DNA from: Carcharhinus longimanus
Taxonomy: Eukaryota
Assembly: GCA_030264375.1 (NCBI GenBank)
Contig: JASCQW010000160.1
Location: forward strand, 17,351,920 to 17,415,919
Direction: 5' to 3'
DNA: 64,000 bases
Each line of letters opens with the position of its first letter. Position 1 is the first letter of the stretch. Below the pieces are notes generated by a model. That model did not search any database, was not told where the DNA came from, and saw nothing but the letters and a program-made list of their open reading frames with translations. Below are positions 17,344-63,990 of this stretch, piece by piece. A program made the position numbers and the translations under genes.

Positions 17344-18067
17344 TGCGTGTCTTAGTGAGCATTCTTCAATCTGATGGGTGGAAGAGTCTCGCTGTCACTT
17401 GCCCTGGTTATACACATTGTTGATTCAGAGGACATCATGCTGGATCTGAGGCTGGATTAGAGCAAGTCTTGTGATCAAAGGCCAATGCAAACTCTGTGGG
17501 CAGCTGTCAGTGCGACGAACAGCGAGCATCAATCCTCCACCACTCATTCTGAAATCTAATTCCTTGACACAAAGGGCTGACTTTAATGGCCTTGTCACGG
17601 AGGGGTTGGAACATGCGGCGAGCCACTCAGAACTCCATTGACATTGGTTGGAGTGGAAAACCCTATTGGCAGAAAAGCTCACCAAAATGTTGGACATTAA
17701 AAGGACAGAATATAGAGGACCAACATTGAAGTTTTAAAATCAGTTAACTGGAACACAGTGATAGTTGCCATCCAAATAATTTTTCAGTTTGTGGTGTGAA
17801 ATTGGGTCTTTCTATGAATGCCCAGTTGGATTGCTTATTGCGTAGAAAGTGAATGTTGAAAAGGGAAAATTAGTTGTGACTAATTTAAAACAAGTGAAAA
17901 TATACTGCACCGCAACATGATTCTATGGGACTGCAAGGAACAGAAGGCATTCAAAATGTACAGTGATAACTGGCCAGTTAAAAAATATGCAAATGTAGTA
18001 AGATCAACCTTTATAAATAGTGTAATGAAGACTCACAATGAAGAGAAATGATAAAAAGCGTTAGTCC

Positions 18068-18700
18068 AAAGAACAAAGTACAATACAGCACAGGAACAGG
18101 CCTTTCAGCCCACCAAGCCTGTGCTGATACATGGTTTCTATCCCTCTGCCTCCCATTCATGTGTGTATCAAGACATGCCCTGAACATTGCTAACATGCCT
18201 GCTTCCTTCACTGGCAGTACGTTCCAGGTACCCATCCCCCTCTGTGTGAAAAACTTTTTCTGCATGTCTACCCTAAACTTGCCACCTCTCCCTATAAACC
18301 TGTGCCCTCTCCTTTCCACCCTGGAAAAAAGCCTTTGACTCTCCACCCCATCTATGTCTCTCGTAATTTTGTAGACCTCTATCAGGTCTCCTCTCAGCCT
18401 CCCTCTTCCCAGTGAAAATAATCTGAGTTTATCCAACCTCTCCTTATACCTAAAACCCTCCAGACCAGGCAACATCCTGGTAAACCTTTTTTGCACTTTC
18501 TCCAAAGCATCCACATCCTCCTGGTAGTGTGGCAAACAGAACTGAACACAATATTCCAAATGAACTCTAAGCTGTAACATAACTAGCTAACTTTTATATT
18601 TGATGCTCCGGGCTGATGAAGGCAAGCATGCTTATACCCTCTTGACCATCTTATCCACCTATGTTACCAATTTCAGGGATCATTGGCTCTGTATGCCCAG
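18068..18700 (-). mobile_element. CR1 LINE ORF2 3' end
   Basis: ORF 18011-18580 reads HLEYCVQF..DVDALEKVQKRFTRMLPGLEG..ERLDKLRLFSL..RLRGDLIEVYKI..FFTQR, a canonical CR1 C-terminus. Confidence 0.92.
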
Positions 18701-28440: not shown

Positions 28441-28796
28441 ATAGAATCATAGAATCCCTACAGTGCAAAAAGAGGCCATTCGGCCCGTTGAGCCTACACC
28501 GACAACAATCCCAACCCGGCCCTATCGCTGTAACCCCTCATATTTACCCTGCAAATCCCACAACACTAACAGGCAAATTAGAGTAGCCGACCAACCTAAC
28601 CTGCACATCTCTGGACCGTGGGAGAAAACTAGAGCACACGGAGGAAACCCCACACAGATACAGGGAGTGGAATTTTCCAGTCAGGCTGGTCCAAAAACCA
28701 GGAATTCCCGTCCGACCGTCAATGACGTTTCACATTCTCCACAACCCACCTCTAAAATTCCAGTGGTGGGGTGGGAGAATTCCAACCGTGCAACAT
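28441..28796 (-). mobile_element. HE1-like SINE (truncated) with a MITE inserted at about 28663-28787
   Basis: atagaatcatagaatccctacagtgca..ggaggaaaccccacacagatacag, then ggagtggaattttcc..ggagaattccaacc, then gtgcaa resumes the SINE. Confidence 0.8.
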
Positions 28797-29801
28797 TCAT
28801 GTCGAGAAACCGCACCGACTTCTTCAGAAGGCAAACATGGAACACAAGCAACAAAGTATCCGTCATGGTCCAGTACTTCCCCAAAGCAGAGAAAATACGA
28901 CATCTTCTCCAGAACCATCAACATGTCATCGACGAAGACGAACATCTCACCAAGGCCATCCCCACACCCCCACTACTTGCCTTCAAACAATCATGCAACC
29001 TCAAACAAACCACTGTTCACAGCAAACTACCCAGCCTTCAGGAGAACAGCGACCACAACACCACACAACCCTGCCATAGCAACCTCTGCAAGACATGCCG
29101 GATCATCGACATGGATGCCGTCATCTCATGTGAGAACACCATCCACCAGGTACACAGCACATACTTTTGCAACTCGGCCAATGTTGTCTACGTGATATGC
29201 TGCAGGGGGGGATGTCCCGAAGCATGGTATATCGGGGAGACCATGTAGACGCTACGACAACGGATGAATGAACACCGCTAGACAATCACCAGGTAAGACT
29301 GTTTCCTTCCTGTTGGCGAACACTTCAGCGGCCATGGGCATTCGGCCTCTGATCTTCAAGTAAATGTTCTCCAAGGCGGCCTTCATGACATACGACAGCG
29401 CAGAGTTGCTGAGCAGAAACTTATTGCCAAGTTCCGCACACATGAGGACGGTTTCAACCAGGATCTTGGATTCATGTCACACTATCTGTAACCCCCATGA
29501 CTTGCCTGAACTTGCAACATTTCACTTACTGTCCTGTCTGGAGACAATACACATCTCTTTAACCCATGCTTAATGCTATCTCCACGCACATTGTCTGCAC
29601 TTTTAAGACTTGAATAGCAGATTAGCTGTAAATATTCGCATTCTAATCAGTATTCGGTAAACTGTGTGTGCCTTTATATGCCCTGTTTGTGATCAGAATT
29701 CTCTACTCACCTGAAGAAGGAACAGCGTTCTGAAAGCTAGTGGTGTTTCCTACCAAATAAACCTGTTGCACTTTAACCTGGTGTTGTGAGACTTCTTACT
29801 G
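28797..29801 (+). mobile_element. Penelope-like element: 3' part of ORF with GIY-YIG endonuclease, plus pLTR
   Basis: PLLAFKQSCNLKQ, PCHSNLCKTC, CNSANVVYVICC..CPEAWYIGET(M*)TLRQRMNEHR..PVGEHF..AEQKLIAKFRTHEDGFNQD. Internal stops are present, followed by the pLTR tail. Confidence 0.9.
29706..29743 (+). ncRNA. Minimal type I hammerhead ribozyme motif in the Penelope pLTR
   Basis: cac-CUGAAGA-a-ggaac-agc-guucu-GAAA-GCUA-gug: conserved core, helix II, palindromic AGCU helix III and helix I cac/gug. Confidence 0.75.
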
Positions 29802-43994: not shown

Positions 43995-44130
43995 GGGCGC
44001 AATCTTACTGGCCATTCATGCCGCGCTCCCACTGCAGCAAGGTTGGAGAATCTGGCACCCAGCCAAATCTCCATTCACTGCAGCGGGATGGGAAATTCTC
44101 ACTGGCGTGAACGGCCATAATATTCCAGCC
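43995..44130. mobile_element. Palindromic MITE
   Basis: gggcgcaatcttactggcc..cagccaaatctccattcactgcagcggga..tattccagcc. Confidence 0.75.
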
Positions 44131-44769: not shown

Positions 44770-44907
44770 CAGCCAGAGTGCTCCAGTCTCGCATGCTCTG
44801 CAGCCGCTCCCAGCAAGAATGGAGAATTTGATGCTTAGCCAAATCTCCATTCACTGCAGCGGGAGCAGGGAATCCCAGCTGCATACGAGGTTAGAGAATT
44901 CCAGCCC
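44770..44907. mobile_element. Palindromic MITE
   Basis: gccagagtgctcc..agccaaatctccattcactgcagcgggagcagggaatccc..gagaattccagccc. Confidence 0.75.
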
Positions 44908-45223
44908 TCAAGTTTGAGTCCTGGTTTGCTTCAAGTTACTATCTCATTTGCACTTGTGGCAGGGATGCAACAATTAATCTCAATAACCTGGGTGAGGGAG
45001 GAAAAGCAATTAATACCCGATTAGTACAGAGTAACAACTTTTTAAAAAGAATTATGGATGTATAGTTGGCAGATAATGATGACGCCAGACTATAATACTG
45101 CCATGCGGACAGTCAAACCCAGTTAAAAGAGTAACCAATTAGATAAGTTACCACAGGATAAAGGTGGAAGCCAACGACATTGTGAGTCATCACTTTCAGA
45201 GTATGAGGGTGGGTGACTGGTGG

Positions 45224-45361
45224 AACTCTTGGCCCTTTGGTTTAGATCAAGCCCACGATTGGGGTGCAATGTCTTTTCTTGTCAGCTTGGATCTTGTACA
45301 TCTCTCTTGTGGAGACCATAAATTGGACTCAATTTGAATTTGGTTGTTGGAGCAAGCAATG
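45224..45361 (+). pseudogene. U2 snRNA-derived sequence (about the 5' 115 nt of U2, rearranged); pseudogene or head of a U2-derived SINE
   Basis: Colinear blocks matching recalled vertebrate U2: tcttggccctttggtttagatcaa ~ TCTCGGCCTTTTGGCTAAGATCAA; gtgcaatgtcttttcttgtcag ~ GTGTAGTATCTGTTCTTATCAG; ggagaccataaatt ~ GAGGACAATATATT; ggttgttggagca ~ GGATTTTTGGAGCA. Confidence 0.75.
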
Positions 45362-46552
45362 CACTTTGCACATTGGCTTTATAACTTTAAGAATAGAATT
45401 TAAAAATTAAATAAAGGTCCAAGGGGAGCAAAAGAAAATGAAAAGAAGTTGGTCTAATAGTCCAGACTTTTGGAGATAATTTTCATCCATGTCTCTGGGT
45501 GGGAAAGTCGATGGGATCAAATGGAAAATTTGTTTGTACCCCAGCCAATAATTACATTCCATTTTTCAATAGGCAATTAAGTAAGATGTGGTGGACTGCT
45601 AACCAGCATCTTACCCACTCCTGACAGGTGGGTTAGATTAAAATTGCCCTCGCTTTACTGAGTCCAAAGCATGCTTCATTCCGGATGAATATCTTCTTTA
45701 TAAACCTAATCATCCCAGGCCTAGTTGTTAACTTTCTCAACCTGAGTAAAGCAGTTCAATAAAATCTGATAGGGCTTGTCAATTTTGAATTCCAATTTCT
45801 CACTTCTGTACACATTGGTTAAGGCAAAAATATGAAACGCAACATCCTTGAGTAGCATTCATCGCTGATGCCACTTTGCAAATTGAACTTTATTGATTGC
45901 AGATGACTTAATATTCATCAGTAATCTAATTGTATCTATTCTATCAAGGTTGAGTAGACATCTCTCAAATTAGTATATAAAAAGACCTTAATTTCTAAAG
46001 ACATTAAAATAGACATCTTGAAATATAGATTTATAATAACAAAAAATATTCAATGGGTAAAAATTCCAGCTACATTATAAAATGCTGGAGCTGAATATGT
46101 ATTCAAAATATTTATAAACTGTAGTCAGGTCACAGAGCATTTCTTCAGGACAGAAGTTAAATACATCCATATTACATTTTTTTTCTATGCAGCACAGTAA
46201 ATAAAATATGTATTTTGCGTAGAAAATATTTACAGGAAGTTTTCTGTTTGCAAACGATAGCATAACTGTTAAAGGACATATTACAGCTCTCACGAGCTTT
46301 AAAGAAGTGGAAAGCATTCCCACTGGGAACATTATTATTTGAAGTTGTACATTTTGTATGCCTGTTGCAAATCGGCCCGATGTGTTGTTGCTGAAACCTT
46401 CAATGGTTGGTCACGAGGGTGAAGGCAATGAAGAAGAAATCAAATCTGCAACTATTTGGAACAATAAGGGAAATGTATGTCCAATAAAAATATATGATTG
46501 ATTATTCCATGAAAGCATTTAAGGGATTTATCTGGTGATGTAGATGGTTAGC

Positions 46553-46822: not shown

Positions 46823-49536
46823 CAAGAAAAATTTTGGACCACCTTGCCTTTCAATGACCCTGGTAAGACAGTGATGGGGAGATATTGAAAATGTTGCTGT
46901 TTGTGACTGGAAATTTATGATGTGGGTATGGAGGGTTGGCCCCAGTACATGAAAAAAATGAGGTATTTCTTCTGGGCAAAGAGGTTAGAAGGAGATGACC
47001 AACAAGAAGTCATTCTCCTGACTGCTTGTGGGGTGTTCAGCATCATAAAATATTTAACTTACCAGCCAACCCCAGATTCAAACTCGTTTGATGAATTGGT
47101 AGATATGGTATTGAGCCACTACAATCCTAAATCATTGTTATATTGCAATGCTACAGGTTTAACACAGCAAATAGACTCCCTAGGGAACTAGTCAGTGAGC
47201 TCCTAATGAGACTGCAGAAGTTGGTGGAACACTGAGTACCAGTCAGCATTTCTGGAAATGTTAAGGGATTGTTTAGAATGTGGAAGTAATAGTAATGTGA
47301 CCCAAAGGAAGCTATGGATTGAACCAGCTCTGAACCTCAAGAGCCATAGAACTGGCTCTTTTGCATGGAAATATGAAAAAAAGGGGCCCAGGAGCTTTAG
47401 GGGTCCATCCTCAGCCTTGCGTGACCTCCATACTGCAGAACCATTTACTGCCAAGAAACGGTAATTGGAGTTAGAGGCTGTGAGATTCCAGAACTAGACA
47501 GTCTCCACACTACAGTGAGAAGTGAGCACAGCTGTGCTGTACTTGTGGTCATGAGGTCTACCCCAGACAAGGCTACCGAAACAGGCCAAAGGGCCACATC
47601 AGGACAGGGCTTCACAAATAAACCAGCCCCAGAATGAGGAATTGATGCAGGTAAATTACATCATTGCACCCAAAGTTGCTCCAATCAAGATTAAACTTTA
47701 GGTAAGTGGCCAGCCCCAAGACATGAAGGTAGATACAGGAGCCTCTATATCTATTATTGGAGAGTAAGCCTTCCAGTGAACCCGATTGGGAAACGTGCCT
47801 TTAAGCCTGCAGGACACTAGGGCTAGATTGGCCACATACACTGGGGAGTCCTTATGTATTGTTAGGATCACTATAACCCCAGTTATATATGGGCAACAGA
47901 CTGTTTGACTCCCCCTAACAGTGGTACAAGGACCAGAGCCCAACCTCTTGGAAAGGAACTGGCTTCAGGAAATCAACCTGGATTGGTAACAGATCTTTAA
48001 TACCAAGTCATTGTGAAGTATCCTGAAGTAGTCCAAGAAGACCTTGAGCAAATTTGGGCCAAGATCCACATGGACCCAGAGCCCCAATCAAAAAAACTCA
48101 AGCTATTGCTAGCCCCCTATGCCCTATGTACCAAAGTAGAGATTGAATTGGAACATCTAGAGGAACTTGGCATTATAAGCCCAGTACAATTTGCTGAATG
48201 GGTCATGCTTGAAGTCCCAGTTTTAAAACCTGACAATTCAATCCGTGTCTTTGGGAATTATAAATTGACTACCAACAGAGTTTCCCATTTAGATAGAAAT
48301 CCTATGCCAAGCTCTGGCTGGGAGTCAGAGCATGAGCCACGCCTACCTCCAACTGGAGCTTATCACCATAAATACTTACAAAGGACTGTATGAGTATATT
48401 CTTTTTTCTTTGGGGTGTCTTTGGCTTGCAGAATTTTTCAAAGGGTGTTGGGGAATATCTTTCAAGGAGTGCCCCTCATGGGGCCATCTATTTGGATGAT
48501 GTTTTAATCTTGAGTTGCTGCAAAAGAACGTTTGGAGAGTTTGAAGGATGATCTTATAGCTTTTTCTGATGCTGGTGGTCTGATTAAAAAGGGAAAAATG
48601 TATGTTCTGGACCAACAAGGTAACATACCTTGGGTACAGAGTTGACCAGTATGGATCATACCCTGTCAAAGAGAAGGAGAAGGTGAAGGTCATAAAAAGC
48701 ATTCTGACTCCAAGGAACACAATGGAGTTGAGGTCTTTCCTAGATCTTATAAATTACTGTGGGAAATTCATACCAAACTTGGTGACTCTGCTGGGATCCC
48801 TCCACATAAAAATCAGAAATGCTCATGGAATCCTTCCACATTCTGTTTAAAAAAAATCAGAAATGCTCAAAGCAAATGTCATAAGAGAAGTCAAACAACA
48901 AGCAATTGTTAACAAATACACTAGCTCATTATAATTCCTGAGATACCTCCTCCTATGGGATAGGAGCAGTATTATTGCACTGTTGGGATGATGGGACAGA
49001 ACGTCCAATCACATATACATTGTGAACCCTGGCAGATGCAGAGAGGAATTATGCCCAGATTGATTATGGTATCTGTGGTGAATAAATTCCATCAGTACGT
49101 CAATGGTCGTTATTTCACCATAGTAATGGACCATGAATCTCTGCTGGGCCTCTTCAAGGAAGACAAAGTGATCCTTCCCACGGCATCAGTCCAGATCCAA
49201 CACCAAGCACTGCTAATAGGTCCCTAAGAATAAACCTCAGAACATCATCCAGAGAGACATTTAGGCAATGCGGATGACTTAATCCCATTTGCCAGTGAGG
49301 AGCTTCAGGCTTTCATGAGTATGAACAGAATAAGGCACATTAAGTCATCCTTAGGGGTTAAGTCATCCACATTGGAAGATGGATGAAGTCGTCATGGCTC
49401 TGAACTTCATGAAGACACTCAGTATCCACCTAGCAAATCTAGGCATGGACCCATAAGGACTCTAAGTTGGCGAAACAACAGCATGTCATCTTAAGTGGTG
49501 GACCACAAGAGCGTCCTATGGAGGATTTGAAACCTT

Positions 49537-49662
49537 GGCAGGAATTTTACTGTCCCACCTGCCATGTGAATTCGAGCAGGTGAGGGGTGAATCATGGAAA
49601 GGTCCGTTGACCTCAGGTGGGATTTTATGGTTTCGGGACGAGCGAAGCTGTAAAATGCCACC
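49537..49662. mobile_element. Palindromic MITE nested in Gypsy pol
   Basis: ggcaggaattttac..gaaaggtccgttgacctcaggtgggatttt..gtaaaatgccacc. Removing it restores DLKP|LFSKFQE..GIILWGTRVVV. Confidence 0.8.
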
Positions 49663-50911
49663 TGTTCTCTAAATTTCAGGAGTATAAAAAGTGGCATCAT
49701 CTTGTGGGGAACCCGAGTGGTTGTCCTGCATCCAGGCCTGCGACCAATGCTTCAAGAATTGCACAATGGCCACCCAGGAATTTCCAATATGGAAATGTTT
49801 GCAAGGAGCTATGTCTGGTGACCTGGCATGGACAGTGATATTAAAAATCTGGTCAAGAGGTGCAAAACCTGTCAGGAAAACCAGAAGGCCCCACCTGGAG
49901 CATCAGTGCACCCTTGGGAATGGCTGGGGTGACCCTGGGTGCGAGTACATGCAAACTTTGCAGGGCTCCATGTTTTGAATTCTCATTGGTACCCATTCAA
50001 AATGGATTGACGTGCATCGGATAGCCTCTACTTCCTCCTAAAATACCGTCAATCTATTAGTACCCATGGTATACTGAGGTTCTAGTGACAGACAATGGGA
50101 TCCCAGTTACCAGTGGGGAGCTTGAGGCCTTCATGAGTATGAACAGAATAAGGCACATCCACATGGTATCCTCAAATGGCCTGGCTGAGTGGATGGCCCA
50201 GACACTTAAAAGTGGCATGAAGAAACAAACCACAGGTTCTCTAGAAACAAAGCTTGCACATTTTCTTTTTACTTATTGGACTACGCCACATATGATATCA
50301 GGAATAGCAATGATGAGCTATTGTTGGGCCACTGCCTTCAGACTAGGCCTAGCCTGATGTTCCCAAATTTAGCCAGCAATGCCAAGTTAAAACAAGAAGC
50401 CCAGAAAAGGGATCATGAGACTGGATAGTGATTTTAGACTGGGAGATAGTGTCCCCGTGAGGAACTGAGGCGACGGCTCTCCATGGATTCTGAGAGTTAT
50501 TCTCAAGAAAACAGGACGGGTGTTTTATAATTTAAAACCAGGGAAGAGGTTAAAGAAGCACACAGATCATCTCCGCCACAGAGAACCGTCCACAGAGGCA
50601 ACTGTTTCTACCAACACACCACGGCGTCCTTCACACTGGCCTGTGGACGGGAAATCCCACCCCTAAAAACTCACCTGGATGATGAAGGTTCTGGCTGGGA
50701 CATGGAGACAGAGGCAGCAGGCATCAAGTAAGAGGTGCCACCAGGGATGAATCCCCTGTGATGGCTCTTCCGATGCTCTTCACCGAAGAGGTGTTCACCA
50801 ATTTGTTACAGGCCCCCCCCCAACCAGACTATCAGTGATGGAGATGAGGCCTTGGGCAAAAAGACAGCGAAGGCCCCATTGTCATGAGAGCGAGTGGGAA
50901 CCCTCAGACTC

Positions 50912-62964: not shown

Positions 62965-63990
62965 CAGGCATTGCCTAACTGCCCTTGTGAAGCACAAGAG
63001 TCAACCGTAAAACCATAAGACATAGGAGCAGGATTAGGCAACTGCCCATTGAGTCTGCTCTGCCATTCAATCATGGCTGACATTTTTCTCATCCCCATTC
63101 CTCTGCCATTTCCCCATAATNNNNNNNNNNNNNNNNNNNNNNNNNNNNNNNNNNNNNNNNNNNNNNNNNNNNNNNNNNNNNNNNNNNNNNNNNNNNNNNN
63201 NNNNNNNNNNNNNNNNNNNNNNNNNNNNNNNNNNNNNNNNNNNNNNNNNNNNNNNNNNNNNNNNNNNNNNNNNNNNNNNNNNNNNNNNNNNNNNNNNNNN
63301 NNNNNNNNNNNNNNNNNNNNNNNNNNNNNNNNNNNNNNNNNNNNNNNNNNNNNNNNNNNNNNNNNNNNNNNNNNNNNNNNNNNNNNNNNNNNNNNNNNNN
63401 NNNNNNNNNNNNNNNNNNNNNNNNNNNNNNNNNNNNNNNNNNNNNNNNNNNNNNNNNNNNNNNNNNNNNNNNNNNNNNNNNNNNNNNNNNNNNNNNNNNN
63501 NNNNNNNNNNNNNNNNNNNNNNNNNNNNNNNNNNNNNNNNNNNNNNNNNNNNNNNNNNNNNNNNNNNNNNNNNNNNNNNNNNNNNNNNNNNNNNNNNNNN
63601 NNNNNNNNNNNNNNNNNNNNNNNNNNNNNNNNNNNNNNNNNNNNNNNNNNNNNNNNNNNNNNNNNNNNNNNNNNNNNNNNNNNNNNNNNNNNNNNNNNNN
63701 NNNNNNNNNNNNNNNNNNNNNNNNNNNNNNNNNNNNNNNNNNNNNNNNNNNNNNNNNNNNNNNNNNNNNNNNNNNNNNNNNNATTCGGCCCATCAAACCA
63801 CATTGCTGTAGCTCATGTTACATGTAAGGCAGACCAGGTAAGGACGGCATATTTACTTCCCTAAAGGACATTGGCAAGCAGGGTGGGTTTTACAACAATG
63901 ATCATCATTCATAATTTTTATTGGATTCAAATTTCATCATCTGCTGTGGCAGAATTCAAACCCAGGTCTCCAGAGAATTTCCCTGAGTCT
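62965..63990 (-). mobile_element. Second-family SINE (as 33755) split by a CR1 3'-tail insertion and a gap
   Basis: ttgcctaactgcccttg..gagtcaacc, then the CR1 tail cataagacataggagcag, the gap, and tcaaccacattgctgt..ccaggtaaggacggca..ttccctaaaggacatt. tcaacc is duplicated. Confidence 0.7.

Follow-up and report, generated by a model that had tools for sequence, protein, structure and literature searches.

What is the U2-like element at positions 45224-45415 of this shark DNA: a variant small nuclear RNA (snRNA) gene, a decayed pseudogene, or one copy of a retroposon family? The window, that is, the whole stretch analyzed, comprises 64,000 nucleotides of Carcharhinus longimanus (contig JASCQW010000160.1), in which no host gene was identified. 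The initial annotation had favored a U2-headed SINE, with a variant snRNA as the other candidate. We find that the locus is an old, internally deleted member of a dispersed U2-derived retroposon family, here called F1. The copy itself is likely inert and without function.

The colinear similarity to U2 over 45224-45415 (forward strand) is borne out by alignment. Against the best genomic U2 (locus L031) the copy reached a local score of 100, compared with 39 ± 6 (maximum 61.5) for 1000 shuffles, and 111 of 162 aligned letters were identical. The Rfam U2 covariance model, which had been proposed as a check, responded only in part: it gave 17.2 bits (E 0.18) on a 281-nt stretch holding the copy, below the gathering score of 46, and found no match here when 5 kb or the whole 64-kb window was scanned. 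With this score, altered branch-point and Sm sites and a deleted stem III, the copy does not qualify as a functional U2 gene. Its parts, in window coordinates, are as follows:

45224..45415, forward strand: whole F1 copy (U2-derived retroposon family), 88-90% identical to the family consensus by alignment
45224..45415, forward strand: subtype of this F1 copy, lacking both the first 12-nt repeat and the 7-nt duplication
45225..45251, forward strand: U2 5' head with stem I, about U2 nt 4-31, from alignments; stem I is paired in the predicted fold
45244..45268, forward strand: the "insert", U2 nt 24-35 twice in tandem, both versions diverged (most members have three)
45244..45294, forward strand: long hairpin module, decayed here, in which the repeats pair with the rewritten branch-point/stem IIa region
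45301..45316, forward strand: stem IIb equivalent, its pairs kept in U2, F1 and the sister family F2 despite changed letters
45317..45351, forward strand: 12-nt extra segment, then the decayed Sm site, over which the consensus is predicted to form a second hairpin
45359..45360, forward strand: junction of a 24-nt deletion by which most of U2 stem III is gone in the window copy
45360..45396, forward strand: end of stem III and conserved F1 3' segment, likely a loop-less remnant of U2 stem-loop IV
45397..45415, forward strand: A-rich tail, with AATAAA at 45410-45415 in the letters of the window

Much of the anatomy described initially stands: an insert after U2 nt 31 (13 nt in the window copy, 12 nt in the family), an altered branch-point recognition sequence, a stem I that still pairs in the fold, a stem IIb equivalent that pairs with different letters, and a 12-nt extra segment ahead of a decayed Sm site. 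The 5' end lies a few bases short of U2 +1. Likewise, no target site duplication (TSD) was found at the copy, the best flank match being 9/12. The A-rich end with AATAAA is present; at the family's conserved position, however, AGTAAA (51) outnumbers AATAAA (12) among 108 tails. The sequence past the Sm site had been read as non-U2, and this did not hold, since F1 runs on through U2 stem III and a remnant of stem-loop IV; the 3' part of the window copy looked foreign because 24 nt of stem III have been lost from it. An orthologous contig of related organism H crosses the deletion junction with one gap. Large deletions at stem III occur in 8 of 154 F1 copies, each with different ends, and alignment to the family shows two changes private to the window copy, a deletion and an extra base.

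The genome search that had been suggested to distinguish a family from a pseudogene recovered thousands of dispersed candidates sharing insert and tail, some with TSDs. A first DNA search of the 2.68-Gb genome returned 1,596 candidates on many contigs, and all of the 40 that were scored had E ≤ 1.2e-28; searching with a full-length F1 copy returned 4,875, the best non-self match being 87-88% identical. A 27-mer spanning the insert has 120 exact genome matches and a 28-mer of the tail has 213, compared with 0 for the reversed control of each. Capture-recapture, with the exact tail in 4 of 90 core-anchored copies, puts the family at about 4,800 copies, a figure that rests on only 4 recaptures and thus ranges from a few thousand to over ten thousand. 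An estimate of about 55,000 copies from column products was dropped, because gaps had counted as mismatches in it. The 147 copies aligned (three duplicate loci left out) average 90.2% identity to the consensus, with a maximum of 95.7%, and 30 tail-anchored loci bring the set to 177. The insert is present in 23 of the 26 tail-anchored copies that cover its position, and 27 of the 30 tail-anchored loci continue into the F1 body, one of the other three being a split copy.

The ends of these copies also bear marks of retroposition. TSD-like junction matches were found in 14 of 105 full-length copies against 1.1 expected, and with windows near the junction in 14 of 130 against 0.9 expected, at lengths of 8-19 bp; a clear TSD is present in only 20 of the 130 copies. 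Flanks are unrelated, except for one pair with a common U1-headed extension and a few pairs lying in common repeats. The commonest 5' end is U2 +1 (17 of 177 copies; 24 at +1 or +2, and 31 without alignment to the U2 head), and no shared upstream DNA precedes the 5' ends of the 177 copies except U1 pieces, which stand ahead of 7 of 177 copies compared with 1 of 177 in the control. Additional U2 heads show no such excess (3 of 177 versus 6 in the control). The element is about 220 nt long and ends in an A/T-rich tail reading A-run, T-run, A-run. The head is U2 rather than tRNA, 5S or 7SL, and the consensus holds internal T4 and T5 runs; by its letters F1 would fall outside the classical Pol III SINEs, defined by an internal A/B box and no oligo-T. 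It has the features of the SINEU class: an snRNA head, a common rearrangement, a length below 500 bp, an A-tail, occasional TSDs, and recurrent U1/U2 additions. We regard the family status of F1 as firm, and the preference of the initial annotation for a U2-headed retroposon family over an ordinary pseudogene was well placed. That the locus is instead a single decayed U2 pseudogene with private indels can be dismissed: the weak Rfam score, the missing TSD, the private deletion and the private extra base would suit it, but the insert, altered branch-point region, extra segment and tail recur at hundreds of loci with exact matches and in thousands of candidates.

F1 is old and likely extinct; its age follows from copies that average 90% identity to the consensus and from an insertion common to six related organisms. 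In the eight sequencing runs compared, out of 22, contigs of organisms B, C, D, E, F and H pass from the unique flank into the element, so the window insertion predates the split of these six. The orthologous contigs carry up to about 9% differences (e.g., 37/423 in organism F). One identical 253-nt contig of organism G was left out of the orthology count. No empty site was seen in the eight runs, and F1-like contigs were abundant in all of them.

The rearrangement that marks the family can be traced to U2 itself. Alignment of F1 with U2 extends over nt 1 to about nt 160 (126 of 167 letters identical), and in the consensus three tandem versions of U2 nt 24-35 match 9, 9 and 8 of 12 letters; in three intermediates (L213-L215) the third repeat is nearly U2-like, with 11/12 in L214. 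These matches show the insert to be U2 nt 24-35 repeated in tandem. Two repeats rather than three are found in 27 of 151 typed copies, the window copy included. The insert was also considered as the TSD footprint of a U2-targeting LINE and rejected, as a cut at nt 38/39 would duplicate nt 39 onward and not nt 24-35. In related organisms, variants with joints near window positions 45260-45297 carry a tandemly repeated hairpin module and an unaltered third 12-mer.

The repeats and the rewritten branch-point/stem IIa region of the consensus are predicted to fold into one long hairpin (z -4.0). Over 108 copies the mean z of this region is -2.2, compared with -0.05 for the same region of U2. The small ccca/tggg hairpin reported initially for the insert does not survive this analysis: it is excluded in the consensus because the repeats pair in the long hairpin (pair probability 0.00, and 0.04 in the whole window copy), and it turns up when a 62-nt piece is folded alone to minimum energy, a piece that folds no better than shuffles (z -0.26). 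In the window copy the long hairpin has decayed to this level, and the copy as a whole is at z -0.06, again no better than shuffles. For the Sm site, a further hairpin rich in G-U pairs is predicted (z -2.5 and -3.2 in two subtype consensuses); at this site the A of U2 is replaced by G in 122 of 177 mapped rows. Between subtypes, letters of stem III change together (19:5 versus 23:45, Fisher p 0.0002), which reflects one event entering the count repeatedly.

The 3' part likewise points to a U2 locus. Infernal placed the last F1 segment of one copy (L105) on positions 148-192 of the U2 model, which is stem-loop IV without its loop; the segment has no stable fold (z +0.6). A derivation of the tail from the U2 3' flank and 3' box, for which the variant junction of L046 matches at 11/13 (p 0.002), appears to fit about as well, with overall scores of 28 versus 27 for stem-loop IV, and both would be sources within a U2 locus. 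A LINE-derived tail was rejected, given that the tail-anchored loci run into the F1 body and that its similarity to a LINE tail is not significant. A foreign 3' end and a chimeric structure can therefore no longer be argued for F1, which is colinear with U2 nearly throughout; chimeric forms are found in its sister families.

Several further U2 derivatives were seen in the genome. Loci L046-L048, on three small contigs that have their flanks in common (about 90% alike), hold a U2 variant that is without stem-loop IV and runs directly into the 3' flank of the gene. A motif resembling a B box is found upstream, and no tRNA genes were called nearby. Ordinary U2 retrocopies form a set separate from F1. 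Dispersed retrocopies at L035-L044 and L049 share about 37 nt of U2 3' flank and end at the same place, suggesting that they were copied from a 3'-extended U2 precursor.

The first sister family, F2, was reached from the neighbor of one F1 copy. It is 300 nt long with 3,113 candidates, a count inflated by words shared with F1, and its 30 best loci (L216-L245, e.g., L217:1501-1799) are 95.2% identical to their consensus, with TSDs in 5 of 30 against 0.26 expected and AATAAA followed by an A-tail. It opens with U2 nt 1-39 and a linker, after which come a second U2 head, a pair of hairpin modules and stem IIb; it reads as a younger, double-U2-headed sister family. The first head ends at U2 nt 39-40, and the linker opens with a mirror-image stretch that can pair with U2 nt 25-39 at 15 of 15 positions. 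Relative to F1, the two inner stems of F2 carry two-sided changes at 4 and 1 of 11 pairs, which amount to few independent events, and in each stem 2 pairs beside the loop are broken. These two-sided changes between families suggest that the predicted hairpin was under selection.

The second sister, F3 (433 candidates; 30 loci aligned, L246-L275), consists of a U1 head (U1 1-51), a U1 repeat, a linker and an F1 body that ends after the Sm site. Its head matches the U1 variant of L175/L177. F1, F2, F3 and the LINE described below often adjoin one another (e.g., L004, L133, L253, L273, L307), and 12 of 117 larger loci have a second piece within 1.5 kb, several of these being split copies.

To U2 nt 39, an A-run is joined in 25 raw matches that reduce to six distinct loci: two F2 3' ends, three LINE 3' ends (one with about 25 extra bases) and one without assignment. 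The 3' flank at this nt 38/39 site, abutted by both the LINE and F2, begins TCTGTTCTT. The LINE piece matches human L1 ORF2p (E 1e-8) and proteins with Exo_endo_phos, RVT_1 and zf-RVT domains, and the LINE encodes an APE-RT protein; the piece also has a match at 63% in Scyliorhinus canicula. In L276 and L302, assembly gaps separate the coding pieces from the LINE 3' end. The element is of L1/Tx1 type, and its general features would tentatively suggest Tx1 rather than L1. Its loci (L276, L278, L295, L296-L325; 718 candidates) are otherwise dispersed. One copy (L314) is fused to U2 nt 1-41, and another is followed by F3-type copies. The DNA upstream of L314 resembles that of the U2 piece in L276, a locus that also holds a second U2 piece with a bare A-run at the same U2 site.

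An exact-pattern search of the genome for an F1 or F3 tail abutting U2 nt 39 gave 0 matches, and U2-like 3' flanks did not exceed the control among dispersed copies of F1 (148), F2 (30) or the LINE (29), so any preference for the site is weak. Comparison of tail and LINE 3' end, another of the checks proposed, yielded nothing significant for the candidate LINE (p 0.19-0.54 over the SINE tails).

Overall, the best explanation, to which we assign a probability of roughly 80%, is that the locus is an old, internally deleted copy from a dispersed family of thousands of U2-derived retroposons, F1, which an L1/Tx1-type LINE likely mobilized and whose source genes likely used U2 promoters. Ends at U2 +1 without shared upstream DNA would lead one to expect an external snRNA promoter. 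For F1, the combination of a U2 promoter and this LINE partner is slightly favored; for F2 the same combination is held with more confidence. In the simplest origin, the starting point of F1 would have been a U2 gene that was rearranged but had a promoter of its own. A copy inserting at U2 nt 38/39 would gain the upstream U2 promoter together with a new U2 head, and, starting at U2 +1, could become a new source gene; the presence of the younger sister F2 inside U2 genes likely explains how elements without a promoter are transcribed. In the source RNA, the long hairpin is predicted to lie over the branch-point/U6-binding region of U2 and the second over the Sm site, from which we infer that this RNA would not have acted in splicing. 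A bolder synthesis, tentative and at somewhat less than even odds, is that sharks evolved an snRNA-SINE superfamily independently of crocodilians, that a Keno-like Tx1 LINE carries copies into U2 genes where each gains a promoter and a head, and that selection favored hairpins which mask the branch-point and Sm sequences and so keep the RNA out of the spliceosome.

Two other accounts of the family deserve weight. F1 could be a SINE family whose transcripts came from read-through of unrelated host promoters or introns, with a different LINE clade moving it, which we consider unlikely. It would accommodate the fact that no F1 source gene with a recognizable promoter was found in the genome, as well as the empty search for F1 at the U2 site and the non-significant tail comparison. 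Read-through, however, predicts variable 5' extensions shared among copies, whereas none were found and the 5' ends peak at U2 +1; and A-tailed copies with TSDs of 8-19 bp are more in keeping with L1/Tx1 than with CR1/L2.

A good deal less probable is that F1 is no selfish element and that its copies derive, as processed pseudogenes, from an snRNA-like variant gene that was or still is functional, a structured paralogue of U2 on which the host exerts selection. Colinearity with U2 nearly throughout, starts at U2 +1, stems I, IIb and III retained with changed letters, the stem III co-variation between subtypes, and the odd U2 variant of L046-L048 without stem-loop IV all agree with such a gene. 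Yet no copy exceeds 95.7% identity to the consensus, the best pair is 87-88% alike, and with all copies this far from the consensus no living source gene was seen. Both the branch-point and the Sm sequence have changed, and the serial head additions and internal duplications of F2 and F3 are typical of SINE evolution. For the window locus itself, the variant-snRNA alternative is not supported: the copy is decayed, deleted and no more structured than its shuffles.

How F1 relates to known elements can be judged from the accessible portions of the relevant papers. There, crocodilian SINEU-3 is described as an A-tailed U2 derivative without internal promoter, with more than 1,000 copies about 90% identical to their consensus, an internal deletion of about 50 bp and a non-U2 tail of about 40 bp, and with 90% of copies flanking Mariner-N4_AMi (PMC4494074). 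F1 resembles it as a short, A-tailed, rearranged U2 with a shared internal change, many copies and about 90% identity to consensus, but differs in its internal duplications, rebuilt long hairpin, U2-derived 3' part and lack of target preference; among 177 copies no common junction flank was found beyond the few pairs in common repeats. As in the portrayal of SINEU-1 and -2 available there, F1-F3 show repeated addition of U1/U2 heads, partial head duplications and tandem insertion beside one another, and the Tx1 partner suggested for those elements also gains snRNA heads, as the LINE does here. Two quoted SINEU-2 motifs, however, scored only 13-23 of 52 points against F1-F3, the higher scores coming from the U1-like part, and F2, unlike SINEU-1/-2 as there described, is seen inside U2 sequences at the site of the LINE. 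The window locus is thus a member of the SINEU-type class that stands outside crocodilian SINEU-1, -2 and -3.

Processed U2 pseudogenes and snRNA-LINE chimeras, as that text presents them (PMC4494074), share with F1 the U2 5' end, A-tail and TSD; they are independent copies of normal U2, whereas all F1 copies carry the same rearrangements. Keno (Tx1 clade) and Utopia are non-LTR retrotransposons reported, in the accessible part of PMC4640811, at the very U2 site abutted by F2 and the LINE. F2 and the LINE are alike in abutting this site, and the LINE has an APE-type endonuclease as does Keno; unlike Keno and Utopia as described there, it is mostly dispersed, with 0 of 29 copies followed by U2.

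Other contents of the window were noted. At 44790-44910 lies a different, very abundant short repeat with hairpin potential and far deeper coverage than F1, and a similar piece lies near 44025-44086. Broken frames at 46900-50360 presumably derive from gag, RT and integrase of an LTR retrotransposon, and those at 562-1020, 18011-18586 and 28445-29248 are what we take to be remains of a CR1/L2-type RT and a GIY-YIG (Penelope-like) element. An assembly gap of N spans about 62990-63790, and smaller N runs are present elsewhere.

As far as the text available to us extends, Kojima (2015) detected no SINEU beyond crocodilians, proposed read-through from host promoters or introns for their transcription and left the mode of transcription open (PMC4494074), and a 2018 paper, in its accessible part, still treats the mechanism as not demonstrated (PMC5786205). 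No report of snRNA-derived SINEs in sharks was found in the openly accessible literature, and the accessible text of a paper on chondrichthyan SINEs makes no mention of snRNA or SINEU (PMC5499810). F1 is a SINEU-type element outside crocodilians, representing a second, apparently independent lineage with thousands of copies. Its datable subfamilies, the intermediates caught in the genome and the presence of F2 at the U2 site of the LINE make the question of SINEU transcription testable. The co-varying hairpin points to RNA structure mattering for propagation, and insertions common to related species could serve as phylogenetic markers.
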